The notes below the pieces were generated by a model. It did not search any database. It saw only the letters and a list, made by a program, of their open reading frames with translations, and was not told where the DNA came from. Positions 12,960 through 37,538 of a DNA stretch of 64,000 bases are shown piece after piece. Location of the stretch: the NCBI GenBank assembly GCA_964016885.1, contig OZ024745.1, positions 81,902,001-81,966,000 on the forward strand, given 5' to 3'. A program made the position numbers and the translations under genes. The stretch is from Eledone cirrhosa. Its lineage: Eukaryota. Position 1 is the stretch's first letter; each line of letters begins with the position of its first letter.

Positions 12960-13300
12960 AATTAGCTAATAAGTTTTTATGATGCCATAATGCTGTAAAA
13001 ACAGTTGGCTAATAATTTGTTCTGACGTCCATAATGTTGAACAAAAAATTAGCTAATAATTTATGAAAACAATTAGCTAATAATTTCTTTTGGAAACAAT
13101 TAGCTAATGATTTGTTATGGAAACAACTAGCTAATAATTTTGTTATGGAAACAACTAGCTAATAATTTCTTAGCTAATCATTTTTTATGAAAACAATTAG
13201 CTAATAATTTGTTTTGATGCCCATAATGCTGTAAAAACAATTAACTGATAATTTGTTTTGATATCCATAATGTTGAAAAAAACAATTGGCTAACTTGTTA
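12960..13300 (+). repeat. Degenerate tandem repeat built on AAACAATTAGCTAATAATTTGTT (also 12520-12605)
   Basis: About ten imperfect copies visible. Confidence 0.75.
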
Positions 13301-16300
13301 CAATGTTTTTGACAAAAATGTATTTATAGAAATCTATTTTATATTTTTTATGCTCACTATTTTAAAACTTTTTCTTCAGAGCCTTTCATCATCATCATTT
13401 TCTACCTACTTTGCATGCTGGCGTGGGTTGGATTGGTTATCACTGCCAGAGACTAGTTAGGTCAGAGAACCATGTCTTGCTTGTACATTCCGGTTTTCAC
13501 ATGGTTTCTATGGCTGGATACCATTCTTAATAGTCATATAAACCGTACTGAAAACAGAACTTACAAGTGAAATGTGATTCTTTGGACCTTGTCAATCCAT
13601 ACTACCCAAGCCAGCTTATCGTAGTATTTGTAGTATTAGTGTTGTTGATGCTGCATTTTGATAAATACAATAGTTTACATCCCTCTTTCTGAATTACTGT
13701 TATTTCTTTTTTAAAAGTTAACTTTTGAGTAACGAAAATTGTTCAGAATTTTCTTTAGGTTTTTTTAATGTCATACTTTCCTAAAGCTATTATAGTTTAG
13801 TGTTAAAGGTCAGTATATGACTACAATCAGGAGGAGTTTTGAATTAAATTAACCCTTTTACGACTGTATTTCTAATATAGTACATTGTCTAGATGTTTCA
13901 ATTAATTTTGAAAATAATGAAAAAATTGATAGCATTTAGTGAAATAATTATCTTTTCATTACTAAGCTGCAAATAAAAAGTTCTTACATAAAATTAAAGT
14001 GGAAGGTTTGAATTTAAATATGAATATTATAATATTAGAGTTTGAGAGAGATTACGCTACTGTTTCTCGCAAATCAAAGAAGCTTATAGACACACCCTCC
14101 CCATTATCCCTTGAAGGAAGTTACAACTGATGGGAGTGATTGTCTGAGAATCCAATTGAAGATCGATCAGACTTGATACATGTCAATATTTTTTATTGTA
14201 GTTGGTAGTACAATTTTTTTGTTTTAATCCTCTTGATTGACTTCATTAAAGCTTATGGAGCACTCATATCTCTGGTGCATTACAATGAAAAAAATAACCT
14301 TTTTACATTGGTGTATTTCTTCAAAGAGATGGATCATTTTGGCTTAAGAAACTACAGTATATTTTCTAATCAGAAGGTAGGATGGGGGTGGGCATTGATA
14401 TGTTGAGCAAGCCCTATGTGTTTCATAGTTGCAAAGTGTCAGTGATGTGGTGTTCAGGGGTGGGAGGTGTTGGTATTTCTGCAACACCAAGGAAACCACT
14501 CTTGAAATAAATAGAAATTTTAATGCAAACATAAATTTAACAAAACTTCTGGCAACAGATTTAGTAAATAAAATAAATCATAATAATAGTAATTTTTTTT
14601 TATTGGCCACAAGGACCCCAAGATATTGGGGACGATACAAGAGCAAAAGAAATTAACAGGGCAGGGTTTATATTGAGTAAAGGAAAGGGGGACATCACTG
14701 AAGAAAAAACAATAGGGATAACAATAATGGAATTTATAATAAATATATATAACAATAGAAAATAATAACAATAACAAATGTCAACAATGACCATTTCCCC
14801 CAATAGTTGTGAGGCAAACTGCACTTTAGGGTAATTCCAGGGAGAACCCTTCACAAAACCCTGGGTTATTCTGTTGCCTCACAGGCATTAAAAGTGACCT
14901 CTCTCTCTTTCCTTCCTCCTGTTTAGAAAAGTATAGTTAGTTTGCCCATTCAGCCTCATCAATTTCGCTGCTCTCACTCATCTGTCATAAAACACACTAG
15001 AAGGCAGCATGTCCCTTTCTACTCTCACCTTCCTCCTCAATAATAATGATAATAATAACTAAGGTACATTTATTTTAATGTAAGAAAAGAACATTTCCTG
15101 ACTAGTTTTCTAAGAAATATTTGAAGACCAAAAGAGAAAAACAAATCTCTATGCCAAGATTAAATGAAATAATAAACTGACAACTTATTTGTCAGAGTTG
15201 ATAGTGTTATGAAATTTAGATATATTGGTTATGTTAGATTTTACTAAGTGCCTGCTGACATATGTTAGATAATACAAGATGAAGCCTGCATCAAATGTAG
15301 TTATTGTTGGTTACCATTTTTTGATCATTTCAGATTAAAGTGATTTAAAAAAAAAAAAAAATGAAATTTCTTACTAACTTTTACATTTCATCTAAGATGT
15401 TTATTTTAGAATAAGTATTTTTATTTACTTCTGCTATCTTGTCAGATAAATGAAGTATTTTATCTCCATCAGTTTTGCTATCTTTTAAAAACCTCAACTT
15501 TACAACTTAACACTTTTTGTATCAAATTCAGTCATGGAATTTATTTGTTGGGATTTGCAGAAACTATTTGGTTTGAAAATAATGAATATTTAGAAAATAA
15601 AATACATTCTGCCATCCCTATTACAGTATATTTATTTCATTTCTGTTAACTGCTCCTTTGTTGTTGTTGTTTTGTTTCCTTTTTTTCCAGTAAGTATTAG
15701 GTTATGGTTTATATAAAACATTGTGAGATATGTAATAAATAATAGTGTTGGGAAAGTATAATATAAAGATGGAACTGAGGTAAAAAGCATTACAAAACAA
15801 AACAATGTTTTTACTTTATATATTGTAAGGTAAAGATATACTTTTTAATTGAAAAAAGAGAGAAAAAAAGCTCTTTACCTTGCAATGTATAGAGTAAAAA
15901 CATTTTGTTTTGTTTTGTCATCTTTTTTTAATTCTATTTCTTATGTATTAGGTTAGTTGTAAATTCTATGTATTAATGGTGTATACATTATCAAAGTTTT
16001 CTCTGTTAAATCTGACTAAATGTTTGTTTATAATTTCTGAAACAGCAACAATTTATTTCCTTCTTTTCTTTCCATGACAGTGATTGTTCCAAATTGTATA
16101 AAATTTAAAATGTTTTTTTTGTTGTTTTTTTGAAATATACAGATAGAAGAGAGTATTTTAAGAAACTCCATTAGTCTATTTGATTTGATCATTTACAATG
16201 AATGTAATTTTCACAAGTTATTGTGAACAAATCGGTATCATATCTTGAATTAACTACTGATTCTATAATATTTTATTTTCTTTAGTAGAAATGGCAGTGT

Positions 16301-17391
16301 ATTTTTCCTTTTTCATACTTGGTTCTGTTTCACGTTTATATTTTCTTTATATCTCAATGCATTATCCATTGTATATCAACTATTATTCTTGTTTCCCTTC
16401 TTCATCCTCACTATATTTGACAAAATTCAAATCTTTGTTTCATTCATACTTATTTTTTAAAGCTGATCATAAATTTTGTATGATTTCGCAACTAGCAATA
16501 ATTAGCTAATTATTATATATAAATCCTCAAAATGTTTTGATAAAACATTTTATTTAATTTTAATTAGAACATTTAAAAAAAAGTATTTTTGTTTTTAATC
16601 AAATTACTTTGTCTGGGCGGTGGTTTTTTCTCATATATAACTGATACACTAAATATTTCAAAAAACTTATCTTTGGTGATTGGTCAAGAAGAAATGAAAT
16701 TATTCTGGTAGTTTTTAAAACTATTTCTTGCCTGAAATCAAAAATAAAGTTAACCACTTTTTTCATGTCCGCTGTAGCAATATCTTCTCTCATCTTGGCT
16801 ATCAAACTTCTGTTAAAATTAACAGAGTTGTGAACATTGCTTTCCTTTGCATGGGTAGTCTAAACTTATTTTGTCTGAAGTGAATCCATATAGTTTTTCC
16901 TAATAATACTCCTGACCATACAAGTTTTCATTTTAATTGCTCAAAATAATTAGCACGATGTTTGCATGGTAGCAGTCTGATAATCTTGCCTCAGAAGCCT
17001 GAAGATAGGTCATTCTAACGTGTAACTTCATTAGTCAATTATTTCAAAGTAAATATAATTATTCCATAGTCTTCAAGTTTCTGAGTGCACTGTGTGAACT
17101 TAATCCAAAGATAAACAATTAACTGGCTCCTTACTTTTTCTTATATTTAATACATTTACAACAAATTTATTTCTATTCAATAATAACTTTACCTTTTCTA
17201 TTTCTATCCTCAGTATTTTGTGATAATTATAGCAGGAATTTAGTGTAGAAGACAGAGCTGGGCAGAATGCATTTCAATTTGGTGCCTTGTGTTTTTGAGT
17301 TTAAATTCTATCAATATCAAAATTACCTTTAAATTCCCACTAAAGTCAACTTGGCCTAAAAAAAATAAAGTACCAGACTAGTACTGGAGTC

Positions 17392-17424
<33 letters not shown>

Positions 17425-18018
17425 AGAAGAAGAAATATGATGTACCCAGTCTTGGAGAGGGATGGGCTCTGCCAGCGTTAACATACCCAAGAAATGTCTC
17501 ATGTCAATACAGTGCCCCTACAACTCTACCAGGAGTTATGGGACCATACCTATCTGAGTAGCTACAATAAGATACTGATGTTACTACACATAAATGTTCC
17601 ATACTTTTAGTTGTGAAACAGGTCTTGTCTGTTTAACATAGAAAATACGTGTATTCTTATCCAAATTATAATTGTCATCAGAGTATTTCCCCTCCTGGAT
17701 TTGTTTTCTGTTTATCCTGCTTTGTGTAAGGGCTGTTCATATTTAATTGATGTATAATCACAACATTGCTCCATCTGACATTGGAGGCATATCATTAACT
17801 AGGTTACAAGCAACCTATATTATGTCATGGCAAGGCTGGCAAGAGGCAGCAAAAAAATCAGAGTTAATACCACAAGGCACCTAATTTTACACTAACCATT
17901 TCACCAATCTGCTGCCCCGGACTTTTATTTCATCAATCCCTAAAGAATGAGAAGCAAAGTTAACTTCAGTGGCATATGGACTTGAGGCTCAAAAACCCAA
18001 AACACTGCATGACATTCT

Positions 18019-18159
18019 CAGGGCCGTCTTAACAGCATTATAGGCCCCCGGGTAAAGCAGAGCACTGGGGCCCCTACCTACACAACCACTCACAGGAATA
18101 AAAATACAAATGGGCCCCCGGGCAACTGCCCAGTGTGCCCATGCGTTAAGACGGCCCTG
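18019..18159. mobile_element. hAT-type MITE, 141 bp
   Basis: 15-bp perfect TIR CAGGGCCGTCTTAAC and 8-bp TSD GACATTCT (18011-18018 / 18160-18167). Inserted in a SINE. Confidence 0.9.
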
Positions 18160-20348
18160 GACATTCTATCCAATGCTCTCTGTCAATTCACTACCTTGAA
18201 ATTAAGTTTTCTTCCAAAAAAAATATATAAAAAAGAAATTATTTTAATGACATGAATGAAACTCGTTAATGACACAGTTTGTTATTCAAGCAACTCTTGA
18301 CCTCAATTTACTGACATGTATATATTCTCCAATTTTCAATAGCCAATAAAGCCCACTAGTTATGCTGAACATATCAATAATTTGTTATTGCTTCACTTAA
18401 AATAGCCTATCTATCTATCCATCCATCTATCTACCCAGCTATCTATCTACCCATCTCTCTAGCTATCTCATATATAGTTTACTTTTATGATAAACTTTAA
18501 TCCCCTGGTAATTATATTTGTTACAGTGACTTGTCAGAATTTGAATGAAATATTTTCTGGAATGTACTGAGAATGTACTGAAAAAGCACAATATTATGTC
18601 TTCAAGCATTTTATTCTACATCCTTTAAAATAATTCAAAGGTTTTTTAATTCATATCAAAGCAAAACTATCTTATTGCACAGTTATAACAGAGGTTTCAG
18701 TTTTGACTCCTTAATCACTTTCTCCACATTAAAAAAGAAAAGAATAACATACAATATATCTTTAAATGATATCTCTCTCTAAAGGTGGTCATTGAAACAC
18801 ATTAACACATGTTATTATATGTTGTGTTAACTCAATGAATTAATATCTTGAACATAATTAACATTGGATTTAGGTTTTATGTTCAGTATATTTTATTTCA
18901 CACACTCATGATGTTGCTGTTCTTGAGGTGGTGCTATTACATTAGACATGACCTGGGCCAGTATTGACTGAAACCTAGTGCATATGATACATCACATCTA
19001 CTTCTTATAAAGTGGAATACATACAAAATGTTTGATTGTTATCAAGAAAATTTATAATTATACTACAATTTATCAAATGGGATAACTTTTTTCATTCTTT
19101 TTTTAGACCTTTATTTCTGTTTTTGCTCATTATTAAGATTTATGTGTATACTTATTAAATCTTTTTTAAAAGTATAGTTACATATTGCAATGTCTTTTAG
19201 AGCATTATCATTCCCATTAAAAGAAAGGTTCTTTCATTGACAATGATAGCATTGAACATATTTAAATTTTGTAGTCCAGGATTGGTGTGCCATGCATACC
19301 AGGATTAATGGATATATGAGCAATCATACCAACTGGGAAATCTGATTTTGATAAATTTTGATTACTGACACATGGAAATACTTACATATAAACATTATAT
19401 TCTAACAATTTATTTTTAGGATATTATGTAAATAACATACAGGATGAAATGTGTAAGTAACTTTAGAGAAATAACTATTTACTGGTACAATGTTGGGTTA
19501 GAACACAAGACCTTGTGACTGGAAAATGAACTTTTTATTGTGCCAACATGACTAAGATAGGAAATATATAAAAGAGTTTATAAATACGTCTATACATAAT
19601 CAACAATAACTCACGACTGACTCAGTTGAACATGTTGAAACAAGTGCAGCCAAGGTCAAAACCAACACACCTATATACATCAAGGTGCTGTGTTACCATG
19701 TCATGCATAGGAAATCAGTATCCTTAATTTTTGTCAAAAAAGTAAGGATATTTGTGTGTCAATTTTAACAAGTCATAACTTTAGAACCATGGAAAGATAA
19801 AGGAATTAGATTTCCTCCTGGACACTACCCTTCTTACCATCTCTAGCTTACATATAATTAAAACTATTTTAATTATGTCAGACCAAATATGATTTTACTA
19901 AAACTAGCTTAGATAAGCCATTTAAAAATTATATGATTTTAGTTCAAAATCTTTAAAAACAAGGAATCTTTATTTTTGCTCCCCCAACGAAAATAATTTT
20001 TATTAATTATAGTGGCATTTCACATTGCAGCATTAATTTGACTTCAGAAGAAGCGGTGGGGATCAGCTCGCTTAAATTGTTATGCTGTATAATTACCTTA
20101 ATCTGAATAATTTTCAAGCTAAAACTGTATGCTCTTCATTCTGTGCTCTGGTAGTTAGACATTAGAATAAGAGGAAATATAATAAGGCCAAAACAAGGCT
20201 AGGGTTGTCAAAATTGCTACCAAAAATCAGATTCCATCCTTGCTTATCTCAATTTTTTAGTCAATTTAAATTTCAGAGTTTTCTTCCTTCCTTCTTTTGA
20301 GAAGAATTTTTTTCTCATTGCAACTTAAATTACATTTTGGCCATTGTG

Positions 20349-20413
<65 letters not shown>

Positions 20414-20418
<5 letters not shown>

Positions 20419-20853
20419 ATAAATTAACGGAGCCATAGACTCTCGTTATTCCCTGTCAATAATGTGCTCAAAGGAAAAGGAATCCTGAGCTCTTTAAAAT
20501 ACAATATGTTGAAAAGGTAACACACGAGAGAGAGTGTGCCATCAATAAAACAGGGAAAACCACCAGTGTATGGAATCTATAGTCTATAATTAAAATGTTG
20601 TCTGGAATGTATAGTCTTGCATGCGCTGATGAACCATAGGCTATTCTATTTCAGTCAACAATTTCCTGGCGAAACAGATCTTTTGGGATTTGTACGCGTG
20701 TGTTATATAGTTATAGAGGTGCGTATATACATTTTAATTTATATTTTTAATTAACCCTGCCTTCCATAGATTATAGATTCCATACACTGGTGATTTTCCC
20801 TGTTTTATTGATGGCACACTCTCTCTCTCTAGTGTGTTACCTTTCAACATATT
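20414..20853. mobile_element. PLE-type pLTR foldback, family 3, between (TA)n tracts (arms about 20503-20587 and 20766-20853)
   Basis: Inverted repeat encloses a hammerhead motif. Its left end is related to 42410-42572. Confidence 0.75.
20620..20700 (+). ncRNA. Type I hammerhead ribozyme with a full stem III, on the sense strand of the MYPT intron
   Basis: CAUGCG-CUGAUGA-A CCA...UGG C-GAAA-CAGAUC uuuugg GAUUUG-UA^-CGCGUG. Predicted cut after GUA at 20694. The first stem II pair is an A-C mismatch. Confidence 0.8.
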
Positions 20854-21490
20854 ATATATATATATATATATAATGTTTGGGAGAGGGAAGTTTCACTTTA
20901 AATTATTTTTAATTAAAACAAAAAAAATATTATTCATTATCAAATGTTACATATGTTTTGCAAGATGATCTACTCTAGGTCTTCATCAATATGATAGAGC
21001 TGACTCCAGTATTGATCTGCTCATCAGATGTGTAGAATTGAATCAAATTATTTCCACATCAGCATTACTAAATAACCTTCGCACACACATACAAAATATA
21101 TAAGTATTATATTCTACTTCTAAATTCAATCATTTTTTTTCTAAATCAAGAATTTTGCAAGTGTCTGCATTTCCAAAATAAATATATAGATACAAATGAT
21201 GATACACATATACCCATATACTTAATAGTTACACTCTTGGAACTAAGGGCAAGTAGTTTTAATCTGCTACACTTAATTTTATATCAAATGATGAATAAAG
21301 TTTGTATTAGTTTTCCTTCTGAAGTACTTTTACTTCTATCTAATAATAAGGCCAGTAGATAACCCCTATCCCCTGTGTGTGGAGTCTGATTTTTCTTATT
21401 TGTTTATCCTTGCTTTATGTATGTTTTTTCTCTCCTCATCCTCCCTGTTTGTTTTGCCTTCCCTTGTTACAGCTTGTTTATTCTTTCCAG

Positions 21491-21577
21491 CAACATGAAA
21501 AGTTAAAAGTGGAGAACGCAAAAGTTAAGGAAGAAAATAGAGCTTTGGCTCGGGTCATCTCCAAACTCTCCAGATAG
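21491..21577 (+). CDS. PPP1R12A: Alternative stop-containing exon D1: variant leucine zipper QHEKLKVENAKVKEENRALARVISKLSR*
   Basis: Long polypyrimidine tract and ttccag|caa acceptor, phase 0. Encodes 28 aa + TAG with the RVISKLS C-terminal signature. A second in-frame acceptor would start the exon at 21473. Confidence 0.85.
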   Translation, partial: QHEKLKVENAKVKEENRALARVISKLSR

Positions 21578-24200
21578 GTAAATTCAGTGTGTCTCGAGAT
21601 AACATCAACCTTTCCAGTTGATTGTGAATCCCAGCATGATAACAAACCAGTTCTTCTTTATTATTATTATTATTAAATGGCTCTCTTCAGTTTCAGTCTC
21701 TAGTACAACTGACAACCAGCATGGTACTTTGACTTATGCTTAGTGTTCCTTGTTTGGTTTATCTCTCTCTCGACTTTAATCATATTCTTATCGAATGTTC
21801 CGGCGATACTTAACAGCTTCTGTGATTCTCAGATTGCTCTGTGTCTTTCTTTTTTTTTTTTTATTCTGTTTACAACCCCCCTGGTGCATTTATCCCGACA
21901 TATCATTTCTTTCATCTCTATCAATTTCTCTTTAGATGTATTTATAACATACTGTAGCCTAATCAACTAGAGTTGATATAAATTTTATTTACTATTGGAA
22001 GTATTGAATAACTGGTTATATATTTAAATATTTCACATTTACTGTATATATATATGACTAGGAAACAAAACACTCAATATTCAGCCATTGGCCCCAACAA
22101 TAAATCTCACCCTTTCTTTTTTAATCCCAGATCTTTGTCTTTCCTTTCTGATTGATACTTGAGACTATTGCTACGATTTCAATCTAATTAATCTGATTTA
22201 ATCCTAATTATGCTCTGTGGTGATTAGCCAAATCACTTTACATTCTGAGTTCAAATCATGCCAAGGTTGACTTTACTTTTTATATCTCCAGGCTTGATAA
22301 AATAAGTACCAGTTAAGTACTGGAACTAATATAATCAACTTTTCCTGCCCTCAAAATGTTTGCTTTGTGACAATTTTAGAAATCATTACTTATTTATTTC
22401 TCATCCTCACATGCAGTATATTCCTCATCTAGGTGTCAAAAGAGGCCTGACAGCTGCAAACTTCCATTTCCACTTTGTCTATATTTGATATAAGATTCCA
22501 TTTTAATTTGGTTTAATGTGGAATTACAAATAGAACTTCATTTAATAATATTTTAATAACTTAACTCCCATGCTAGATACAGTCATCAAATTGGTAATGT
22601 TCTGATTTCAATTTAACGGATTGCAAGTTTATATTTTCCCTTAACATTCATTTCTAGTCCTATAGAAGTAAGCTATAGCATAAGGGGTGTTGTGTAATCA
22701 AAACTGGAATACCATCATCATCATCAATCTGCCTGTCTATATTGACATGTGCTGAATGGTTGTCATGGTTTCAGTTAATTCTTTTCAGGATTACTTCACT
22801 CTTAGATGGGTCACTGACCAGATCTCCTTTGTATGTTCAATATTTGGCATGATTTCTTCAGCTAGATGTCCTTCTTATCACCAACCACTTTATAGAGTGT
22901 TGACAGCATCCCCACTCGAAAAGTTGACTTGCTCCTGGTGAAACTAACGAGTCTTTACATTGTCTCAGTTAATTTGTTCCTTTCTTTTCAACGCAACTCT
23001 GTTTGTGGCAGAAAGATTGCTAAAAAAGGGCCAGGGTGATAAGGAGATGGTGAGAGATAGTGATAGGATAGAATGCAGGTGATGGATGTCAGTAGGTCAT
23101 TGGGGTGGGGGAGGAAATAGCTGAGAAAGAAATAGACAGATGGGATAGAATAAGGGTTATGGATATCAATGAGTAATAATAGATAAGGGAGGAAGACAGA
23201 AAGATAGTGATGAATATGCCCGAATCTCTTATAAATTTAATATTGCATCTCACTAGATCTTCAACAACTTGTGAAATGTATGTCTGTTACAAAGTTCCTC
23301 CATTCCTACCATTTTGATTCAGATGAGTAAGTAGCCAATAGTATATTTTAGTCTCAAAGTAAAATTAATCAGTTTGAATGTTAAATGCTATCAACTGTAA
23401 AAGTCTGATCTCCCACAATATATCCTGTATATTTATTTATTGCAAATGAACTCCAATTCAAATGATAAAATGTGAAGACATTTTCATTTCCTGTTATAAT
23501 TGTTATGTCTGTAATGAAGGAAACTACTTAACCCAACTTTTTTGTTTCTGGAGGAAAGATAAATGAAACAAAACATGGAAATAAGATTTTGTACGTCTAA
23601 TTAAGGACTCGTTAAGTTGCTGCCACTTCCACTCAAGATATTATAACTGATTACTTCTAATTGGGTCTTAGACCATTGGCATATGGTTCTAACATTGGTT
23701 ATGTAAGCCACTTAATAACTTTTTTTTTAACAATCTGCTATTATAATTCAAGGAGAATCATGAATTTTATTTAAAGCCCCCCCCCCCCCCCCCCCCCCCC
23801 GATAAGATAAGAAGGAAAATTTAGTTATATGAATCAGTGAGGTCATTGTATCCTTACATATGGCCATGAGTTTAAACCCTTTGTTCTTACTCAAATATAT
23901 TCCTTAAATCTACACGTCTGATATAGTACCAGTGTGACTGCTATCTCATTAATTAAATCACTGAAATTTACTATAAAATCTTTATGCTTCAGAAATTGTT
24001 TATGCAAATATTTAAATTTCAAACAGAAAACCTTAAAGTATGAATATATATGGCTTTCAATAAGAATAGTTTAGCTGGATGCTGCAAAATGTTCAATACT
24101 GTTTTGAACACATACCCAAGTGAAATTTTATACCAAAAACGTTTACCTTGTGAGACTAAGATATTACTGCTGTATTAACAATTGACCCTTTAGCAATTGA

Positions 24201-24400
24201 CCCTTTAGCAATTAAACCAGCCATATCTGGTCAGAATTATCTCACCTCTTTCTGTTCAAACTGACCATAACCGACCACTCACACTGACATTAAGGTATTG
24301 TTCTCAAAATAAATATCATCATCAAAATCTCAGTTTCCATATTAAGTAAGATAAAGCCGTTACCATGAAAATATAACAGTGTAATGTAAATGCTAAAGGG
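24201..24400. mobile_element. piggyBac-like MITE
   Basis: TIR CCCTTTAGCA...TGCTAAAGGG flanked by TTGA/TTAA. Related CCCTTT..AAAGGG elements occur near 6730-6940, 13853 and 56060. Confidence 0.55.
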
Positions 24401-25059
24401 TTAAATTATATTGTAGCAGTGCCCTTCTTCCACAGGATATGGACTTAGCTAAACTCATGAACTCCTATAGAAATTTTGGCAGTGCAGACCTCCATAGTTT
24501 GTCTGGCTTTGATTTTTATTTGTTGTCTTTAAAGCTATGAGAACTTCTATATGAAGATAGCAACGATTAAAAACATAGCTAGTTGCAGTGGCAGTGCCAT
24601 AAATGACAGAAGAGTTTAATGCACAAACAGACAGTAAATTAAACAGTTTTTAGCTATTACACTCTCAACAAACATATTTTACATTTAGGATTATTCTTAA
24701 AGTAAAGTGGTTTGGAAATTCTTACTTTTTTTATTTTCTAATCAACTTTGTCTCCCTGAATATAGTGGAGCCATTGGTGCATCACCAATCTTGATAAAAT
24801 AAAGCAGTTTCTAAGGACAATTCTTAAGATCCTCTTTCTCCTAATATAATGCCGATCATCTTTGTTGGTGTCACTTGTAAAAAGATGATTCCATAGTTGT
24901 ATAAGATATAGAAGTCAAATTTATATTGATATAACAATATTTAGGATCTTATATTTCCCACATTTTTTTAATTAGACACATGGAAGATCTGTGTCATATT
25001 GGTCTTTGAAGGGTTAGCACTGGTTTAATAGCAAAATCATTTATATACAAATGACCTAG

Positions 25060-25905
25060 TTCTCATAGCTGAATCAGCAGCGAAACTAGAGAAGAAATTC
25101 TAGGCTTAAAAGCAAAATTTGGAATGTAAAGGCCTCAAAGTCAACTAAAATCCTAGTAAGTAGGAAATATGGCAGGACCCCGATCTTGTCAGGGAAATGA
25201 CCATACTCAATATGCAAAAAAGGAGCTGGTAGGAATTCCATACTGTGTTTGAAATGTATACTATGGATATACAAGTGTTGTAGTGGGATCTTGCAGAGGT
25301 TAAGAAAGAATGTAGACTTGGTATGTAACATGCACAGGAGCAGTAAACAGCAAGAGCTTACATCAAGCAGGTTCTATCAGATGCTCAGATGGCCCCTTGG
25401 AAATAGTTGACAGCTTCTAGTATCTAGGGGATTTAATTAGCAGTGAAGTATAGTAGTTAGAGTGAGAACCTGGTGGAAAATATTCAAAGAACTGCTACCC
25501 CTGCTGATTACAAAGAGTTTCTCCCTCAGAATGAAAGGCAAATTGTATGGTGCTTGTGTGTGAACTGTCATGCTGCATGGAAATGTGAATTGGGCCTTGA
25601 ATGCAGAGGATCTGCAAAGATTGGAAAGAAATGAGGTGAACACGGTCTGATGGGTGTGTAATAGCAGCATCCATGAAAGATACAGCATCATTGAACTGAG
25701 AGAAAAGCTTAGTATAAGAAAGACAATACAATATACAAGAAAGAAAACTGTACTGGTATGCTCATGGAGGATGACAGCTGCATAAAGAAGTGCAGGGTAC
25801 TCAAAATATCAGCAAGACATGGTCATCTGTCAGTCTAGCCACAGACCATAACCTGTCTAACCACAATAAGCATGGAAAATAGATGTTATAAGGTGATGAT
25901 GATGA
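25060..25905 (+). mobile_element. Older degraded RTE LINE 3' fragment
   Basis: Similar to the reverse complement of about 53570-54330. Ends in (tga)n. Confidence 0.75.
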
Positions 25906-28900
25906 TATATATATATTTACCACTTAAATATATCCCTAAAAGCTGTGCCTCAGCAGGTTGAGATGATATTGTTAATTCAATTCTTGAAAATTAATGACTG
26001 CAGAGAAAAAATGTAGGTGAGGAAAAATTCTACAGGACCTCTTGTCTAATTACTTGAAACCTGTGAGAATTTTGTGTATTATGGGTGTTTGTCTATGATA
26101 ATGCTGGTGAAGTTAGGTATTGGATAAAACATATTCCAGCACATTTTTAGACTTCAAAAATTTGCCATGAATGTGACTTTCATAGTCTTATGAAAAATAT
26201 TCTATACTCCCCTATGACACAAATTTAAGCAAGTCCAGAGTTATCGGTGTGATCTAGAAAAACATTGTTTTATGTCCAATTTCCATGCTGGCTGGATAGT
26301 TCATTACACTCTGAGACCAGGCAGGTTGGATGACCATGTCTCATACATTTGCATGGTTTCTATGGCTGGATGCCCTTCCTAACACCAACCACTTTACAGA
26401 GTAGACTGGTTGTACTTTGACATCAAGACTACCTCCCACTTCACTGTGTTGACTGGGTGCATTTTAATGTGACATTACGGCTACTATACAAATAAAATAC
26501 AGCTCAAATTAGTTACTTCATATCCCTGCCTCCTTCTGTGAGTTATTTATATAAAGTTGAAGCTTAAGATTTTTTGTTGGTCAGCATCTTCTTTAGATAT
26601 ATAGTTTAAACTACTCCTATCTGGGAATTAAAACCAGATTGGTAATTCAGTTAAGATCTCACTACATTGTGCTTGTTATTTTGAATCTTGCCTTTTTTGT
26701 TTATTTTCTGCTGCTAGCTGTTGTTTCATTTCCCATGATCCATGCTGTTATTATTTAATCTAATAGAGTTCAAATCCCACCAAGGTTAACTTTGCCTTTC
26801 ATCCTTACGGGGTCAATAAAATAAAGTACCAGTCACACACTGGGATCGATTTAATCGACCCCGCCCCATTGCTGGCCTTGTGCCTATATAAGAAACCATT
26901 AAGCTTCTAGTGGTTGTGTCACCCACTATGTTCTTGGCCTATTGTCATCATGTCAGTAATTTATTAACTATTGTTGGATTAGAATTTTTTTGTTTAACAC
27001 ATATTTACTGTTTCATTTCTTTACACACATATATAGTTTATTACAATATAACGTATTGTGGATAATGTATAAGTGAAATGTTAGGTGCAAATGTTTCCAT
27101 TTTAAGTCTTTAATTAGTACTGCTTTCAGTTATTATCAGATATTTCATTTCTTGCATGTTTTATTTTTTAATTTTTTATTTCTTTTGAGATGATCACATA
27201 GCAGTTTGTCTAGGGTATAAATTAACTTTAATAAAGTATTATTTCTAATAAGTAAATCATATGTAGAGAAAACTAACATTAAAGCAACTGCAGTAGTTGT
27301 AGAATTTATAGCAAAAACTTAACAGCAGTTATCTTAGTCTGTTTAACTAACAACAATAATATTATTCTTTTAAACTTCAAGGTAAGCAATCTAAGATTAC
27401 AAATTTCGTGCGAATACAGAAAATATTGGTAAAATTTAATTTAGCAATTCTAAAATAATTGTTTATCAAAATGATATGAGAAAAATTGAATATCTAGAAA
27501 AATGTTGTTTTCTGAAAAGTTAAAGGCAATTTTTCTCATATCGTTTTGATTGAAATTTTCTTATTAGATAAACATATAGTGAGACATAGTTTTGTGTGTC
27601 AGTTCACGCCACATTTTTTTCAAGTGAGGCACATTTTATTTCCAATTAAGAATATTGTAACATCCATTAACCTTGGCTCCATGCTTCAATAAGAAACTCC
27701 TATATTGAGAGGAAAATAAAGAGAATCAATCTCAAAATAGCGCATTCATTTATAACATTTTATGAGTCTTACAGATAGGTATAAAATACTCTTTGACTAA
27801 TGCTTATGTGGTATTGGTTGGACTCACTCCTATGACCCAGTTCCTCAATCATCATCTTTGCTGTTGCAAGGACCTTGGTCTGGAGCCCCCCACCCCACTC
27901 CCCAGCATCGCCCACATACCAGACATTCAAATCCAGGTCAGCTCCCATCTTGGTGGCACCATCAATGCCCAGTGCAAAAACAATGTCTGAGTGGGTCAGC
28001 TCCTGTGGCAGATAGGAGGAAATGGTCACCAAAGGACAGGTAGAAGGGCTCTCAATAGGCTTGCCAAGCAGAGTGGTAAAACTGAGGGCCCTCCCCTTTA
28101 CTGAGCAGAGGATGACATCCCGACTGATGGAATTCTTGTGATCTAGCTTGAGGATAGCCTTGGGGGTTTCAGAAGTTGGTAAATGCTCTGGTGGCATGGG
28201 TGGCAACCTCATAGCCCAGCTTGGTACCCACCCCTAGCTGAATAAAGAAAAATTTGGTGGACAGGCTGCCTGAAATCGAAGACAGACATGCTTTTGCAGT
28301 ATGCACCCAACTGCTATGGGGCAGGGGTCAAATGCTTGTTTACGAAAAGATAGTATAACAAAGGGAAATATCTCTGTGTAGATGTAAATTTGAAAAGAAG
28401 AGTAGGTGTACTTGTGTTAGTATGTGTGCACTAAAGCTCATGTATGGTATTGTTTGGTGGTATGTAATATTGAAATGTTAATATTAAGTTATGGAGTTGA
28501 GTAGTATACAAGGTGTACTGTATTATGTAAGTTTGGAAAAAGAGAAAATGAGAGTGAGAGATGTCTGAATGTGGGGTTGTAATCACTAAATATAGAGCCA
28601 TCAATATGTAAACATAGAGGTAGATGTATATATACACATATCTAAGGGGATAGTTTTTCAAGAGGAACTTCACTGAAGTATCATCGGCGGTGACACACTT
28701 TCCAATGGCTGACAAATGAAGCATCAATAACATCACCTTGCTTTGTGGAAACTCTGAGTACTTAGGAAGGTATATGCCAGTTTGTGATGTGTTTTATATA
28801 ATAGAGTAGATATAGATATGTGCAAAAAGTTAAGAAAGTAAAGTAACAAAGGAGAATGATGCAAGGCAATGGAGATATATTTTAGTTTAATGCCTGATAT

Positions 28901-29265
28901 AGTAGGAAAAGAGTCTTAATGTTGTGTGTGTGTGTATATATATATATATAGTCACTAATGACCATGGTTTTGCATCTAGAGAGTTTCCCTCTGAGCTACT
29001 AGCCTGGACAAGGTTTGTTTGTGGAAGACCAGCAGTCGGCCATGCATTCCAGTCTCCCTCCTCCATGCCACCAATGTTGTCCAATGGAAAGGCAACAGCT
29101 GATACAGCTTGGCACGAGTGACGTCACAACACATTTCTACAGTTGAGTGAATTGGAACAACGTGAAATAAAGTTTTTTGTTCAAGAGCACAACACATCAA
29201 TCAGTCTGAGAATCAAACTCACAACTTCTCTAAGCCCAATGCTCTAAGCAGTAAGCCATGCACCT

Positions 29266-29269
<4 letters not shown>

Positions 29270-29344
<75 letters not shown>

Positions 29345-29358
29345 TATATATATATAAT

Positions 29359-29432
<74 letters not shown>
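29270..29432. repeat. Long (TA)n microsatellite (others near 3450, 20350, 30951, 37545, 44552, 62008)
   Basis: Directly visible. Confidence 0.95.
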
Positions 29433-29434
<2 letters not shown>

Positions 29435-29776
29435 GGAGGCACGTGGCTTAGTGGTTAGAGCATTAGCCTTACAATCGAAAGGTTATGAGTTCAATTCTCA
29501 GACCGGGTGATGTGTTGTGTCCTTGAGCAAGACACTTTATTTATTTCACATTGCTCCAGTTTACTCAGCTGTAGAAATGAGATGATAGGACTAGGGTCCC
29601 TATCATTCCACTGCAAAGTGGACGTGTAGGTGCCACGGCAAAAAAGCACCCAGCACTCACTGTAAATGAGGTTGGTGTTAGGAAGGGCATCCAGCTGTAG
29701 AAATCAAGCCAGAATCAGTTCCCGTCCCACCCTTGCAAGCAGGGAAAAAGCGGACGTAAAATGAAATGATGAATGA
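29435..29776 (+). mobile_element. tRNA-derived SINE with RTE-derived tail (another copy at about 11842-12175)
   Basis: A box TGGCTTAGTGG and B box GTTCAATTC. The 3' part is shared with the RTE 3' UTR and ends (TGA)n. Confidence 0.8.
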
Positions 29777-29784
29777 TATACATA

Positions 29785-30432
29785 TACAGGATGCGGACGG
29801 CATCTGAGGACACATGTATTTTTAGTCATTATTTTATGCAACTAATTTTTTTTATTGAACTTCCATTTCAGAAAATAACTATGCTTACTAATGAAATGAA
29901 AAGGCATGTTGTGGTTGTGGCTTTGAAGGCTAAGCATTGGGATTTAGAAATTTCTCTTTTTCTGAAAGTTGTAAGATCTTTTGTCCACAAGATTCGGTGC
30001 GAGTTAGAGAAAGATGGAAGCGTATTACATGTATCAAAACGTAAAAAACATTCCAAACACTCTGATTCTATCGGGACACCTGAATTTATTCAGGAAGTTA
30101 AGCAAAACATTGATGACAATGCAGGAAAATCGAGGTCAATTGCAAAAAATGTTGGTGTGTCAGAAAAAACAATCAGAAATGTTATGCATGAAGACATCAG
30201 ATACAAATCTTACGTGATGAGGAGAGGTCGATTCATGTTAGAAAAAACAAAAGAAAAGCATTTAATCAGAAAGAGTTTTAAACAAACATAAAATCTATCA
30301 GAAGATGGTGTGATTTGGTTTTTCTCAAATGAGAAAATCTTTGACCAGGACCACAAGGCTCAAATGACACAAGAATGGACGGGCGACAATTTGCATGATC
30401 GCATGACCCCCAACATTTGGCCTCCTAATTCC
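29785..30432 (+). mobile_element. Tc1/mariner (maT/DD37D-like) transposon relic, internally deleted
   Basis: TACAGG left end. HTH region SIAKNVGVSEKTIRNVMHEDIRYKSY; WFFSNEKIF (normally FSDEK); WPPNS motif cut off at the foldback. Confidence 0.8.
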
Positions 30433-30774
30433 CATCAGATAAAATACAAAGTTTGTTTTATAAATATTGACATATCCAGGAAGAAGATCTTAACGTTTCA
30501 AGTTTTTCCTGGATAGTCTTGAACCGTTAAGATCTTCTTCCTGGATATGTCAATATTTATAAAACAAACTTTGTATTTTATCTGATGAGAGCATACCAAA
30601 GTTTTGGCACCCTTGAAATATATATATAATAGAATAAATATGGTTTTATAAATATAGTTTCCATTTATTTAATATCATTGATATTATACTCCAGAAAACT
30701 TGTCGAGTGCTTCGAATCAGTTATAAACATATATATTTGTTGAATTAACCAACAAATTAAATATCCCTTTTGCT

Positions 30775-30775
<1 letters not shown>
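30433..30775. mobile_element. PLE-type pLTR foldback, family 2, at the point where the mariner relic breaks off
   Basis: Arms 30433-30502 and 30519-30587. Similar to 3810-4236. Confidence 0.75.
30574..30636 (+). ncRNA. Minimal hammerhead motif with palindromic (UA)n stem III
   Basis: UAUUUUAU-CUGAUGA-GAG..CCAA/UUGG..CUU-GAAA-UAUAUAUA-UA^-AUAGAAUA. Confidence 0.7.
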
Positions 30776-30817
<42 letters not shown>

Positions 30818-30847
30818 TAAGAAAATGCGAAGTCCTTTATTGATAAT

Positions 30848-30919
30848 GCTGTGATACATATTTCAATGGGGACTGGCCACACGTTCCGTGTACCCAGTGC
30901 CATGACACCATCAGACAGC
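30848..30919 (-). ncRNA. Degenerate hammerhead-like motif (fourth family)
   Basis: Minus strand reads GCUGU-CUGAUGG(ugucaugg...)-long stem II (ACUGG/CCAGU, CACG/CGUG)-GAAA-UAUGUA-UC^-ACAGC. Core A9 is altered. Confidence 0.5.
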
Positions 30920-30948
30920 TTCTTATATAAGGTTACGTTCCCGAGGCA

Positions 30949-31002
<54 letters not shown>

Positions 31003-33722
31003 TGATTGTCTTGTCTTTTGAAGCCTTTACAGTATGTGAAAACACTTACATATATTGTTGTCCATTTATTTTTTCAGGGCTTAAATATGTTCTAAAAGCT
31101 GTGTTTAGTTTAAGTATATTGTTTGACAATACATTCTGATCAATTCAATATAATGTTGTTGTTGAACGGTTGATTGGCAATATCGGTATAGCTTCAGACA
31201 GCATGCTTTGCGGTATGGTTACATCTCTTTTCGTCCTGAGTTCAAATCCTCCAGAGGTTAGCTTACAGAGTATCCTTACAGGGTCGATAAAATAAAGTAC
31301 CAGTCAATTTAATCGACTTTCCCTTCCCTCCAAATTATTGGCCTTATGCATAAATCAGAAACCATCATCATTATTATTATTTCTGCAAGGACGGTGGATT
31401 GGCAGAGTTGTTAGTGTCGAATAAATGCTCAGAAGTATTTATCTTGACTCTTTACAACCTGGCGATCAATAAAATAGAGTACTAATGATATACTGTCAAT
31501 GCCCCCACCCCCTCATTCATGCTCCAATCCTATGTGAGAAACCATTGTTATTCTGGTGGTGGTGGTAGAAGGGGGGGGGGGGTTAAATAAGATATGTTTT
31601 AAATTATAACATCATTATCTTTTATGCCGAAGCTGAAATGAAAATCATTTTTCCTTTCAAAATTTGTATCTCAACATTTCCATGGTTAGAAACAGTGATA
31701 ATTGGGATATCATGGATACAGTTATACCTCCTCTTATGTCATACTATGCTTACTTGGACAATTAATGATGGGTTGGATGTTGCTTGCTTCACATCACAGC
31801 TGTAGCTGGTGGTGTCAGACAAAAGGGTCAGTGAAAGGTCAGGTGGCATCACAATTATCCCATATCAAGGTGGTATGCCCCTTCATCTAGTCTGTGACCA
31901 CTTCCTTTTTCTCGTAACTTTACGAATTCGGCATCAGCCCCAAGCTCCATTGCTTGACATGCTTAAGATTGCTTGGCTGACAAAGTACCAGGCACTCTCC
32001 AATAGATTTCTTGTGGTGGAAAGAAGAAAAAGATGAGAAGATGAAGGAAAAATAAAATGGGGAAGAAAAGAAGGAAAACATGTCATTTAGGGTTGGCTCC
32101 TGAATCACCTCCCTACTTTGATCAGGATAGAGATGACCATTTGCAAGAATAAGCCCTGTGGATGGACTCTTTCAGGACATCTCTCTTGCTATTCACTGGG
32201 GTAATGTTTTTACCATTCTGTCCACTGGGACCATGAAGCAATAGCTATCTCATATAAAAATACAGCATGACATTATTTGGTAAATGATATCTGTATAGAA
32301 ATGAATGAATATAATTTATTAAAATATACTGAGGAGTTCTGTGGTGTCAACAATCCATGCTATTTGCATTCCTTTCTGATAAATGTTGAGGGAAAGTTGT
32401 GTTTACAAATCATATTATAATCCAATCATTTTTGTCTATAGAGAGAAGACAGAATTGGTAGATTGTGGTTTTAAGAGGTTACACTTCTTACATTTTGAGT
32501 TCAAATCCCACTAATGTTTAATTTGGCTTTCACATATCTGAGGTCATTAAAATAAGTACCAGTTAAGTTTTGGAGTTGGCACAATTGACTATATTCTTAA
32601 AAGCAATTCTCCCAGCCTGGCCACAATTCAAAGACTGAAGCCAATACAAGAATGAACTGTTTGTTGTCATTAAAAGGATAAGCAATTTATTTGTTTACTA
32701 ATTACTGTTGTAATATCAAATTTACTTTAGTTGAAGAAATTGTTAGAATTTTATTTTTTGTTTTATAGCCTTCATTTCTCTCTTTCTCCACAATACATAC
32801 ATATATACATTGTCTTGTAACTCCTGATAGGAGTGTCATATTGACATACAGCATTTCTAGGGCATTTTAAAACCTGGCAGAGCCCATCCCTTTCCAGGTT
32901 TGAATACAGCAGTTTTCTTCAAGAGAAGGATAGAGAGAATGGAAGTGAGAAAGAGACATAGCGGAAGAATCAACCCTAGTACTAGACTGGTACTCCTTTT
33001 TTTAATTTAAAAAAAAAAAATATTATATTGACCTCAAATGGATGAAAGACAAAGTTAACTTCAGCGGGAATTGACCCAGAGATGAGAGAGCCGAAACGAA
33101 CGCAGCAAAGTCTTCTATCAGCCATTCTAACAACTCTGTTAATTTGCCACCTCTTTCTCAACAATACATACTCTTAATTCTTTCCATTTCCCTCTATTAT
33201 TGATATTAAATATATTTAACAAGGTTAGGATTACAATTTATCTAAAATTCGTCATGTAAAAATCACATTTTTGTCCTTGTTATCTTTAATTTTAATAACT
33301 ATATTCTTGCATTCATTATTTCTACTACAACCCCGTTTTCTCTCTCATCCTCTCTCACATAAACACATAGACACACACAATCCCGTTATGAATGTTTTTT
33401 TTCTTTCTTATTTGTACTTCTGTGTCTGAATGTCATTATAACTCTCAAGTGTTCTTATAGCAGAAGAAACACAAGTTCATCTTGACTAACTAAACAACTA
33501 ACTTGTATATGTTATTTCTGTTGCTATTTTCACCAATCTGTAACAACCAGAATGTGTCTCATTAATTGTGACATTAGCTTTAACAACTAACAATACATCT
33601 GTCTTCCCCCTTCTTTCATCGTATATCACATGTAGTGAGATTTACTGTCACCATCATTTTTTCTGCAAAACTACATGTCTACTAACAACTATTTATCTAC
33701 CATCATGCTAACCAACAAATCT

Positions 33723-34248
33723 ATCAAAGGAACAAGTGTACTACAATCTGATGACAACAACCCTTCGACCTCTCATTCACATCAAAGGAACAAGTGTACT
33801 ACAATCTCATGACAACAACCCTTCGACCTCTCATTCACATCAAAGGAACAAGTGTACTACAATCTGATGACAACAACCCTTCGACCTCTCATTCACATCA
33901 AAGGAACAAGTGTACTACAATCTCATGACAACAACCCTTCGACCTCTCATTCACATCAAAGGAACAAGTGTACTACAATCTCATGACAACAACCCTTCGA
34001 CCTCTCATTCACATCAAAGGAACAAGTGTACTACAATCTCATGACAACAACCCTTCGACCTCTCATTCACATCAAAGGAACAAGTGTACTACAATCTCAT
34101 GACAACAACCCTTCGACCTCTCATTCACATCAAAGGAACAAGTGTACTACAATCTCATGACAACAACCCTTCGACCTCTCATTCACATCAAAGGAACAAG
34201 TGTACTACAATCTCATGACAACAACCCTTCGACCTCTCATTCACATCA
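33723..34248. repeat. Minisatellite, 58-bp unit x9, nearly identical
   Basis: Unit ATCAAAGGAACAAGTGTACTACAATCT(C/G)ATGACAACAACCCTTCGACCTCTCATTCAC. Confidence 0.95.
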
Positions 34249-35949
34249 GAAACTTGGAAGCATTCCTCTGCTTATTAATTAATTTATTTATTTAATCAAT
34301 TTAAACATCCGTATACAGCTAGTAAGCCATGGTAGGCTAGGGGAGGTATCTGGTACCCCTTTCAGTTAAGAAACAAAAACAAGATAGACAGATAAAAAAG
34401 GGGAAGGGCAAAAGAAGCAGAAATAAGATTTAAAAAGTGAAAAAACATATTGCTTTTTCATTAATTACTAAATTAAATTTAAAAAGGTTAGAACAATTTT
34501 AGTTACACTTTTATTTATTTGCACTTTATATATATATATATATTAATATCATACTTTAGAAACACTGAGGAGTTATGAAATTCATAGAAAATGTAGGAAG
34601 CTCCGACACAGAAAATAACTGTAAACACAGTCAATTGTTATAAATAACAACTCGGGAAATCTTTCAGAAAGATATGAATTTTGATTCTGCATAGCAGCTG
34701 CCGGCCACTTTTTCCCGTCTAAAAGGGATCTTTACTCAATTTTCCAAGCTATTATTTATAGCAACCAACTGTGTTTACATTTATTTTCTGCATCTGAATG
34801 TCCTACATGTTCCCTACATCTATATAAGTTTATTGTTTGATAATTCAACCTTCAGAGCATGGATGGATAGACCAGTAGCCACTTGGTAGGTTGTTCATAT
34901 CTTAATCCTGTTACTTTATTTCTAACAGGGTCAGTCCGCCTAGTAGCAAATGGTTAGCAGACTGAAGAAGGGAACAGTTCATGAATGAATGTTTTTGTTA
35001 ATTGGGAGTGCTGAGTTCAACTTCATGTGTGGATATAGTTTGGAGAAAAATGAATTCTGCTTAGCCAACCCTCTCTCTCATATAAATATTTCATTTGAAG
35101 ACAAGTATCAGAGGTGTCCCTTTTACGTAGTGCTTCATAGCACTTATCATAACTAGGTGATTGATTGTCTTTTGAAGTAATTATACTATTATCACTCAAT
35201 ATTGTTTGTTAACTAAGGGTTAAACAGTTTCACAAAGCTTGACTATATGCTTTATAGCATTTCATTGGGTAAACTGAAGTATTATCATTGGATCCATCTT
35301 AGCACGTCATCCATTTGAAGTGAATAAAGTGACAATAATATACTACTTAAAAAAGAGTTTCTGCTGAGTGAGAATGAATGAGCTTTTATGATTGACTTAT
35401 GGTCCATTAAAGTAGGGCTTGTATTTTCTGAAATTTTGGTACAATTTTCCTAATGCTATTTGCACTTATTGAAACTGAGCTGCTCTCAGTTTCATTAAGT
35501 GTTGACATTGTTGAATAATGTAGTAGTTTTATGTGTGATGGTATATTTATACATCACTGATTCTCTCTTTGGGACTTGCAGTTTCCACTGGCTAATGTAA
35601 AAAAATATATACTAAAATGATACTCAATGTCCTTGTTTTAGTAATAATTTCTGGCTGTTAGAATTGCATATATGCCCCCCCCCCCCCCCTTTTTTTTTAA
35701 TACTCAGATGCAATATATTTTGGAGATTTATTGTATATTTTTATCTGCTGTTTTTATTTTTTAAACCCCATGCAATAAATATTTTATTGGTTCATGTGAA
35801 ATAAATAAATAAAGATATTGTTTTATATATTTTGTATCATAGGAAGAATTCAACATTGAAGAGAATTAAAAATTGTTGGGTAATGGAGTAAGTTTCTTAA
35901 TTAATCATTGATATTTTTAATATATTTAAATTTATTTTCATTTTTGCAG

Positions 35950-36036
35950 GAAATGGATAATCTACGATCTATAAATGCACGCCTGAAAGAAGAGAATGGA
36001 GCTTTAATAAGAGTGGTCAGCAAACTCTCCAAGTAG
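35950..36036 (+). CDS. PPP1R12A: Terminal exon D2: canonical leucine zipper EMDNLRSINARLKEENGALIRVVSKLSK*
   Basis: tttttgcag|gaa acceptor, phase 0. Encodes 28 aa + TAG, close to the MYPT1 C-terminus LKDENGALIRVISKLSK. Too short to appear in the ORF track. Confidence 0.92.
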   Translation, partial: EMDNLRSINARLKEENGALIRVVSKLSK

Positions 36037-37538
36037 TCACAACTGCTTTATTATTACATTTTTTTACACACACACACACACAATATACACATAAGCACAT
36101 TACTTATGCCCCCTTTAATTTCTTATTCTCCTCCTCCCTCTTCTCTATTTACTTATTACTCTACTCCCATTCCCATAGTTCATACCACATCATAATCATC
36201 ATGATCATCGTCATCATTGTCTTCAGCACCATCATAAATATCATGGTCAGGTTCCCCCCCAAATCCAGACATTTGTATCAAAATCTAAACTTTCTGCTTA
36301 CACTGGATTCTGTTCTTGTCTTCCAAACTATAGTTCTTGCATATAACCACCATGCCAACCTTGTTGCAGCTGCTTGGCTCTTGTTGAATACCTATTTTGC
36401 ATGCCAACATACACATACACAAAAAAAAAAAAATGTCTTTTCCTCGTGTTGATTCATAAATAAATTTCAAAGCTACATGCATACTCTGCATCATTCATTT
36501 GTTCCACATTTAAAAGCAAGAAAATAAAAGAATAACAACTTGAAGAACAAAAATAACTCTATACGTTTTATCCCAGTGTGTTGTGTTTGAAATGGATAAC
36601 ACACTGTAGACTATTTGTATTCATATAAAGGCTATAGGCATCCTAGCACAAAATCAAGTGAAGTAACCCCTGAGACAAAAACATATCTAAAGATGTTGGT
36701 AAGCTATATTTACATGGGCAGCATCAGCTTAGCTAAGTCATTTTATCCTGTATTATATATATATATATGTATAAGGGATAACAAAATATTGTTATAGGTA
36801 ATCCAGTTAGAGGTTGTGAATAATTCTTATGGATCGTTTTAGCGTACGGCTTTGTTTGACTCAACAAGAGGTTTACGTAGATGGCGAGTTTATGATTTAA
36901 CTATGTAAGTTTATCTTGGAGTAATAAAATTGAAAAAGTGAAGAATAACATGGTCAACAGTACAAAAAAGGTGAATTTATTTACAGTCTAACAATTGTTT
37001 CTCTGATTGAGTTGTCTAAAAATTGCTGAACACTAGAAGCATGTGTATGTGTATATATATATATATAAGGATTATACCAGCTTTAAACTAGTAAGACCAT
37101 TATTCAGCACTCAATACTCAATACTTTGGATAGTAGAGTGATGACTGAGCTCTTGCCATTTTGAAAGCAAATTCCAGACTCTGGAATTTGCTATCGAAAT
37201 GGCACGACTCAGCCATTGCCCATGTAGCAAATGGGCCCTACATTTATCGAGAGGAGAAACAGCATGAGTAAATGGCAGATACTGTGATGAAAAAGGAATA
37301 AAAAGTAAAACACATATTAATATGAAATAAAGAAAAACAAAAATAGAGTAGAGAATGTAGAGTAGAACATTAAACATAGTTCATAACTCTTTTATAAATG
37401 ATTTTTATTTCTGCCTGTATATAAAAATGAGGAAGGTAATATGTGAGTGAGAGAAAGTATAAAGCTAGTGATAAAAAGGTGGAGCTAATAAGTCCTCATA
37501 GAAAAGAATAGTGAATGGCTAATGTGTGTGTGTGTGTG

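Follow-up and report, generated by a model that had tools for sequence, protein, structure and literature searches.

The 64,000-nucleotide (nt) window analyzed here (Eledone cirrhosa, contig OZ024745.1, positions 81,902,001 to 81,966,000) contains the 3′ part of a MYPT (PPP1R12/Mbs) gene in which two exons, designated D1 and D2, each encode a 28-residue leucine-zipper C terminus. These exons are a real, conserved and spliced feature of the gene, most likely an old protostome cassette by which zippers are swapped and not an octopus invention. We think it probable that D1 arose long ago by duplication of the zipper exon in the only MYPT gene and is most likely spliced as a cassette, and that the swap, as predicted from the residues that differ, changes the binding partners of MYPT rather than removing its zipper. 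In the mechanism that we propose, skipping of D1 would leave the canonical zipper of D2 (G-type), and inclusion of D1 would supply a second kind of zipper (R-type) together with a stop codon. The included D1 would be joined to D2, so that both mRNAs would share one 3′ untranslated region (UTR). The 50-nt rule of junction-dependent nonsense-mediated decay is well established, and the D1 stop, placed at the last junction, would escape that decay. Inclusion may be regulated by tissue, and the hydrophobic core of the R-type zipper would still form a coiled coil with a changed flanking surface, which would alter the affinity for PKG-I or other zipper partners.

The peptide encoded by D1 is QHEKLKVENAKVKEENRALARVISKLSR, which is the R-type (ENRAL), and that encoded by D2 is EMDNLRSINARLKEENGALIRVVSKLSK, the canonical G-type (ENGAL), each running directly into a stop. 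Both exons are preceded by an AG acceptor, and both are in phase 0 with the donor GTAAGT that follows 12463. The original prediction, which described two phase-0 exons of 87 nt, identical at 15 of 28 residues and with heptad positions L-V-L-L in D1 and L-L-L-L in D2, is accurate on all of these points; at the nucleotide level the exons are identical at 51 of 87 positions, with the same codon used for 7 of the 15 identical residues. This similarity is not a chance one, because the mutual ungapped score of 73 is far over the runner-up score of 30–35 found in the six frames of the window (background mean −30, standard deviation 11). Both peptides exceed the Pfam cut-off of 32.4 bits for PF15898 (PRKG1_interact), D1 with 36.0 bits and D2 with 41.2 bits, and a genome-wide search with this family matched only D1, D2, and a coiled-coil exon of the same gene, giving a single MYPT tail locus with no third zipper copy in either the window or the genome. 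The proteins closest to the coiled-coil exon are Octopus PPP1R12A (80–84%), and on sequence grounds we identify the gene as MYPT, the only copy in the genome, and the source animal, from its closest proteins, as an octopod. Within 200 kb upstream, the + strand encodes counterparts of residues 82–936 of the Octopus bimaculoides isoform X1 in the right order, with ankyrin exons that are 86–93% identical to X1 apart from one at 63%, and Pfam ankyrin families are present on the Octopus orthologues; residues 1–81, which in the orthologue include the KRVNF motif (RVxF, PP1-binding), were not found in the 200 kb upstream. An ankyrin tree (quick mode, 59 of 66 rows kept) served only to choose proteins for naming. 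A search of the PDB gave no MYPT zipper match, the best being Par-4 (E 0.077), and a search of the ESM Atlas returned PF15898 only.

The difference between the two zippers is concentrated at a few positions when 58 distinct R-type and 86 distinct G-type peptides are tabulated. Position 17 (heptad b) is R in 98% of the R-type peptides versus G in 87% and A in 12% of the G-type, position 20 (heptad e) is T, S or A in 98% of the R-type versus I in 97% of the G-type, position 4 is K in 90% of the R-type, and the net charge is +4.0 for the R-type versus +2.2 for the G-type. Residues N9, N16, L19, R21, and L26 are kept in both types (98–100%). The conserved change, as read from these alignments, is thus G17 to R and I20 to T, S or A, with about two additional positive charges, and with the core preserved and the b and e flanks altered the R-type would still be a coiled coil but would present another surface for binding. 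The replacement of L12 by V, which had been put forward as the key change, was rejected as the functional one, since 93% of the R-type peptides keep L12 and the substitution is confined to octopods. It is possible, though clearly less probable than a change of partner, that the main effect of the swap is to tune how MYPT self-associates or how stable it is, or to weaken the zipper so far that the form is functionally zipper-minus: I20 is a hydrophobic e-position residue beside the core, so that T, S or A there would lower coiled-coil stability, and the octopod valine at position 12 weakens a core position too. Against this stands the near-invariance of the five residues listed above, over a span of more than 500 million years, together with the fixation of R17 on an exposed b-position, a pattern that looks like selection for a specific contact and not like loss.

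The original prediction took both exons to be terminal, so that the gene would have two alternative last exons. In our analysis, D1 is most likely a cassette and not a second last exon, because a donor directly follows its stop codon and a contig from a related species has the shape expected of a bubble between inclusion and skipping. The donor (TAG/GTAAAT) matches the consensus at 7 of 9 positions, a quality shared by ten sites in the 23.5-kb intron, and no donor follows the stop of D2. Four of 24 listed sequencing runs were compared with positions 9000–22400; no listed run is on record as RNA, the four compared all show spliced contigs, and their species differ. In run X7, which comes from a related species, record 22 continues for 52 letters beyond 10081 at a depth of 58.6 and therefore ends at the 12463 donor, whereas record 23 is a contig of 147 nt (depth 29.5) of which letters 31–118 lie on 21491–21578, with 29 letters more. 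This length fits 30 + 87 + 30, the inclusion arm of an assembly bubble with a word length of 31, and the last matched G of the contig (21578) equals the first base of D2. The X7 depth in the bin 21516–21962 is 4.15, and because the D1 contig alone predicts 4.16 (63 × 29.5/447), there is no read-through cover behind D1 in this run. Two of the four differences in the contig are shown, and both are synonymous. The depth of D1 is about half that of the shared exons, contig depth being a rough measure. Thus D1 is flanked by an acceptor and a donor, and its inclusion and skip paths rejoin, the rejoining exon presumably being D2. The order of the exons, D1 and then D2, is established by Gryllus gene models and protein P0166, in which an R-type beginning runs into a G-type end.

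Several observations weigh against the cassette. The evidence for the bubble is the geometry of contigs in that one run, where the letters of the D1-to-D2 junction are not displayed and D2 lies outside the compared stretch. Run X24, which matches the window without differences and has 0.99 of the words of D2 and the UTR, lacks cover of the D1 coding sequence, and so do runs X11 and X18. This is not evidence of absence; rare forms drop out of contigs. Inclusion is at about half depth in one of four runs, and three of four lack such cover, among runs of differing species. An ATTAAA lies at 21672, 95 nt past the D1 stop, and a contig of depth 2 from run X11 aligns to 21575–21734. The last two observations are what would be expected, together with the D1 stop, if the gene had two alternative last exons, D1 and D2, with a separate 3′ UTR and poly(A) site for each, but this we consider decidedly unlikely given the strong donor at the D1 stop, the departure of the X7 contig from the window at that same point, its 147-nt length, and the missing read-through cover; the X11 contig could derive from pre-mRNA or DNA. 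By definition neither exon of such a pair is spliced onward, and D1 does not behave in this way in the one run concerned; a minor use as a last exon is possible.

The cassette is also associated with candidate control elements. The 118-nt tract before D1 is 77% pyrimidine, which is above every 118-nt window sampled in 20-nt steps from 12464 to 35900, and two GCATG words lie on the 3′ side of D1, where a post hoc count finds at least two such words in 1.8% of 200-nt windows; the tract and the two words are candidates for controlling D1. Counts of TGCATG, CTAAC, and YGCY near the exons gave nothing notable. Another in-frame AG (21470–21490) precedes the D1 acceptor by 18 nt; it would add six residues and is not used in the X7 contig. 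Separately, the O. vulgaris model P0021, possibly an artifact, leaves D2 after …ALIRV; at that point, 36013–36021 in the window, there are internal GT sites.

The zipper pair had been attributed to an independent origin in this lineage, and here our results differ, as the same two types are found paired in bivalves, gastropods, Lingula, Priapulus, and Eriocheir. The 37 matches to the D1 region include R-type ends of Mytilus, Ylistrum, Sinanodonta, Potamilus, Patella, and Pomacea, and cluster look-ups added G-type counterparts from Sinanodonta, Ylistrum, Pomacea, and another species of Patella. A second search had 974 matches; of the best 120, 113 were new (108 ENRALTRV, three ENKALTRV from Lingula, and two with a G-type end from Gryllus), and the best 150 of 515 matches in a profile search comprised 76 GI, 45 RT, 12 AI, 5 RS, 8 other, and 4 unmatched. 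Isoform pairs of equal length in which the last 28 residues alone differ occur in Sinanodonta, Ylistrum, Pomacea, O. bimaculoides, O. sinensis, and Priapulus; both ends are present in Patella (two species), Lingula, and Eriocheir; the chiton Liolophura has an R-type end, and R-type ends also occur in crustaceans and insects. No deuterostome R-type end is among the matches listed (best 120 of 974 and best 150 of 515). When ten species pairs were compared, with pairs among the three octopods left out, same-type identity exceeded cross-type identity in 42 of 42 between-species comparisons (means of 20.1 and 20.1 versus 16.2 of 28 residues). In a quick tree, a branch with a Shimodaira-Hasegawa-like approximate likelihood ratio support of 92 separates the ten D1 rows from the others, and the rows of the amphioxus and crinoid proteins and of bird MYPT2 group with D2. 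The simplest reading of these sequences is a single duplication before the split of Lophotrochozoa and Ecdysozoa, because the D1 copies group together across phyla. It is tempered by the tree having 28 columns and no starred branch, and by many of the isoform names being gene-model predictions.

Repeated, independent duplication followed by convergence, with the octopus copy specific to its lineage, would be compatible with that tree, and a 92-aa protein of uncertain affinity (P0283, found in Logan only) that ends in an R..V type indicates that the G-to-R change can recur. We nevertheless regard such repeated origins as very improbable, as, of the 58 R-type peptides, 56 combine R17 with T, S or A at position 20 (57 counting the K..T form), K4 accompanies them at the frequency given above, every between-species comparison favors the same type, and the R-type is spread over a chiton, bivalves, gastropods, octopods, a brachiopod, a priapulid, crustaceans, and insects. 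Individual lineages have their own peculiarities: in Gryllus P0074 and P0075, and in P0166, the first 21–22 R-type residues are joined to the G-type exon as a tandem double zipper, either real or an artifact of prediction; in Priapulus (P0076/P0311), the G-type copy has diverged (AEKSALVRII) and the R-type is conserved; and arthropod R-type ends (P0077–P0165) carry C-terminal extensions of varied length, those of Daphnia being long and rich in serine.

Octopods use both forms and conserve both, which supports the prediction of two swappable zipper ends made by exon duplication. Among 23 Octopus proteins, 4 end in D1, 18 in D2, and 1 exits D2 early, and the X1 and X2 isoforms of both O. bimaculoides and O. 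sinensis differ in their final 28 residues only. The D1 peptide is identical at 28 of 28 residues to O. bimaculoides X2, at 27 of 28 to O. sinensis and O. vulgaris, and at 26 of 28 to Argonauta, and is thus better conserved than the constitutive exon upstream (80–84%). Neither a lack of D1 reads nor decay or absence of D1 in relatives, either of which would have counted against two usable ends, was encountered, given the X7 contig and this conservation. The view that D1 has decayed, is noise, or serves as a poison exon through mRNA decay is scarcely credible, for the three runs without D1 coding cover, the exactly matching X24 included, are outweighed by this conservation, by the half depth in X7, and by a stop that sits at the last junction.

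It had further been proposed that the gene tunes partner affinity rather than deleting its zipper. Such tuning is a hypothesis; the second part of the proposal is incomplete, as the gene can likely drop the zipper as well, through a third end, judging by sequence similarity. The O. bimaculoides isoform X8 has neither coiled coil nor zipper and finishes in a hydrophobic tail, and the counterpart of this end is intact 28.5 kb upstream of the window (G000:C5:81873548), where it is 82% identical, in phase 0, preceded by a good acceptor, and open for 56 codons. This X8-like exon encodes a hydrophobic 19-mer with a mean hydropathy of 2.2, so a membrane-anchored MYPT without coiled coil or zipper is possible. 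A zipper-less end is also found in Eriocheir X12/X13, which is not hydrophobic.

Coordinates and supporting evidence for the features of the gene within the window are collected in Table 1.

Table 1. Features of the MYPT 3′ region in the window.
Feature	Positions	Strand	Evidence
MYPT exon, constitutive, preceding the C-terminal coiled coil (…SLELDYKK)	9112–9270	+	tblastn, 87% to O. bimaculoides residues 937–990; spliced onward in 4/4 runs
Constitutive coiled-coil exon, 147 nt, phase 0 (LYENEKED…QQKR)	9936–10082	+	PF15898 positions 2–42; 80–84% to three Octopus species; spliced in 4/4 runs
Shared 51-nt donor exon EKRALERKLSELESTVS (TCC/GTAAGT), fork to D1 or D2	12413–12463	+	Sequence; run X7 record 22 has 52 letters past 10081 = 1 + 51
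C/U-rich tract and D1 acceptor	21371–21490	+	77% pyrimidine over 118 nt
D1, R-type zipper (ENRAL) with its own TAG; most likely a cassette	21491–21577	+	PF15898, 36 bits; octopod conservation; 147-nt X7 contig
5′ splice site directly behind the D1 stop (TAG/GTAAAT)	21578–21583	+	7/9 donor consensus; X7 contig departs from the window here
Two GCATG words 3′ of D1, candidate Rbfox-type inclusion enhancers (weak, post hoc)	21634–21723	+	Words at 21634 and 21719
D2, last coding exon, G-type zipper; would be 3′ UTR when D1 is included	35950–36036	+	PF15898, 41 bits; 28/28 to three Octopus species; no donor after the stop
Start of 3′ UTR, AATAAA at 36459 and 36523	36037–36650	+	Run X24 has 0.99 of the words of 35950–36650

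The window also contains repeats. A 58-bp tandem repeat (9.1 copies, 99% match) occupies 33723–34248 in the intron between D1 and D2, a frame at 29773–30288 has a weak HTH_29 match, and a frame at 50003–51048 has no Pfam match; both frames are likely transposon remnants, which by resemblance we take to be mariner-like and LINE-like, respectively. High-copy repeats lie near 11114–11217, 11850–11950, and 22236–22340.

The nearest comparator is the E24 exon of vertebrate MYPT1 (PPP1R12A), which produces leucine zipper-positive and -negative (LZ+/LZ−) forms and resembles D1 in belonging to the same family and in being a small cassette near the 3′ end that alters the zipper. According to PMC9367544, vertebrate E24 is a frame-shifting cassette of 31 or 13 nt, with the normal stop in E26, two exons on. 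Inclusion of E24 removes the zipper, whereas D1 is 87 nt long, in frame, carries its own stop, and supplies another zipper; moreover, D1 is a paralog of the last exon and stands directly before it, which E24 does not. Neither the 31-nt frame shift nor zipper removal that defines E24 is found in D1, which scores above the family cut-off and belongs to a type that keeps L19 and L26, and from the exon numbering the two cassettes would lie in different introns. An E24-like insert between 10082 and 12413 is ruled out in run X7, whose record 22 has exactly 52 letters there. For MYPT2 (PPP1R12B), heart-specific variants arise by alternative splicing, as described in PMC13755552. The MYPT2-named bird protein P0286, like the amphioxus and crinoid proteins, ends in a G-type zipper. 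The M20 and M21 heart variants of MYPT2 (Arimura 2001) reportedly differ at the C terminus, one of them with an R-type second zipper. The pairs named PPP1R12A in RefSeq and GenBank (X1/X2 of O. bimaculoides, O. sinensis, Pomacea, Ylistrum, and Priapulus, and X4/X5 of Eriocheir) have the same two ends, and the pair in the window is orthologous to these protostome isoform pairs, which are automatic annotation. Both isoforms are thus already in RefSeq; the pair itself is apparently unstudied, as a literature search covering few subscription papers returned no study of the invertebrate pair, its mechanism, age or function.

A further likeness is to PKG-I, in which one gene has two homologous zipper exons, for the α and β forms, with isoform-specific partners; these zippers are chosen at the 5′ end and on the kinase, whereas D1 and D2 are on the substrate side. 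In the present genome, PKG zippers are encoded by two exons that share a strand and are separated by 60 kb (G000:C3:219029277 and 219089619). A GT donor follows each of the two, and they are likely the alternative first exons of one PKG-I gene, to judge from their sequences. One best matches the Iα zipper 1ZXA (E 8e-5) and has a net charge of −1; the other best matches 3NMD (E 2.6e-21), which we take to be the Iβ zipper, and has a net charge of −4. The MYPT1 zipper is required for the interaction with PKG-Iα, as PMC13755552, PMC5087845, and PMC9367544 describe, and acidic zipper residues of PKG-Iβ bind basic clusters of IRAG1 according to PMC10298018. By analogy, the more basic D1 could prefer other partners, because Iβ binds such basic clusters through acidic zipper residues, and from its sequence we predict that the zipper swap changes the signaling partner. 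A complex prediction with the D1 tail (O. bimaculoides 1036–1083, two copies) and the PKG-Iβ-like zipper (two copies) scored 0.07 against a mark of 0.34, which is no evidence either way. A broader proposal, which we think unlikely, is that the zipper-swap cassette is as old as the bilaterians, persists as the alternative end of vertebrate MYPT2, and rewires cGMP signaling, the basic R-type (net +4) pairing with the acidic PKG-Iβ-like zipper (net −4) and the G-type with PKG-Iα. If this were true, two MYPT zippers and two PKG zippers would together form a splicing code for nitric oxide sensitivity in invertebrate muscle, far older than the vertebrate LZ+/LZ− exon.

The gene and both sequences are already in databases as X1 and X2, and what is new here is the proposed mechanism, the age, and the partner hypothesis. 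Control of myosin phosphatase by zipper splicing has so far been studied as a feature of vertebrate smooth muscle. With a second, older switch that swaps the zipper instead of removing it in priapulids, crabs, and octopuses alike, work on invertebrate MYPT/Mbs would have mixed two isoforms with different partner surfaces. The question of partners is a tractable one: it involves one exon of 87 nt and two diagnostic residues, and the same genome has both types of PKG-I zipper.

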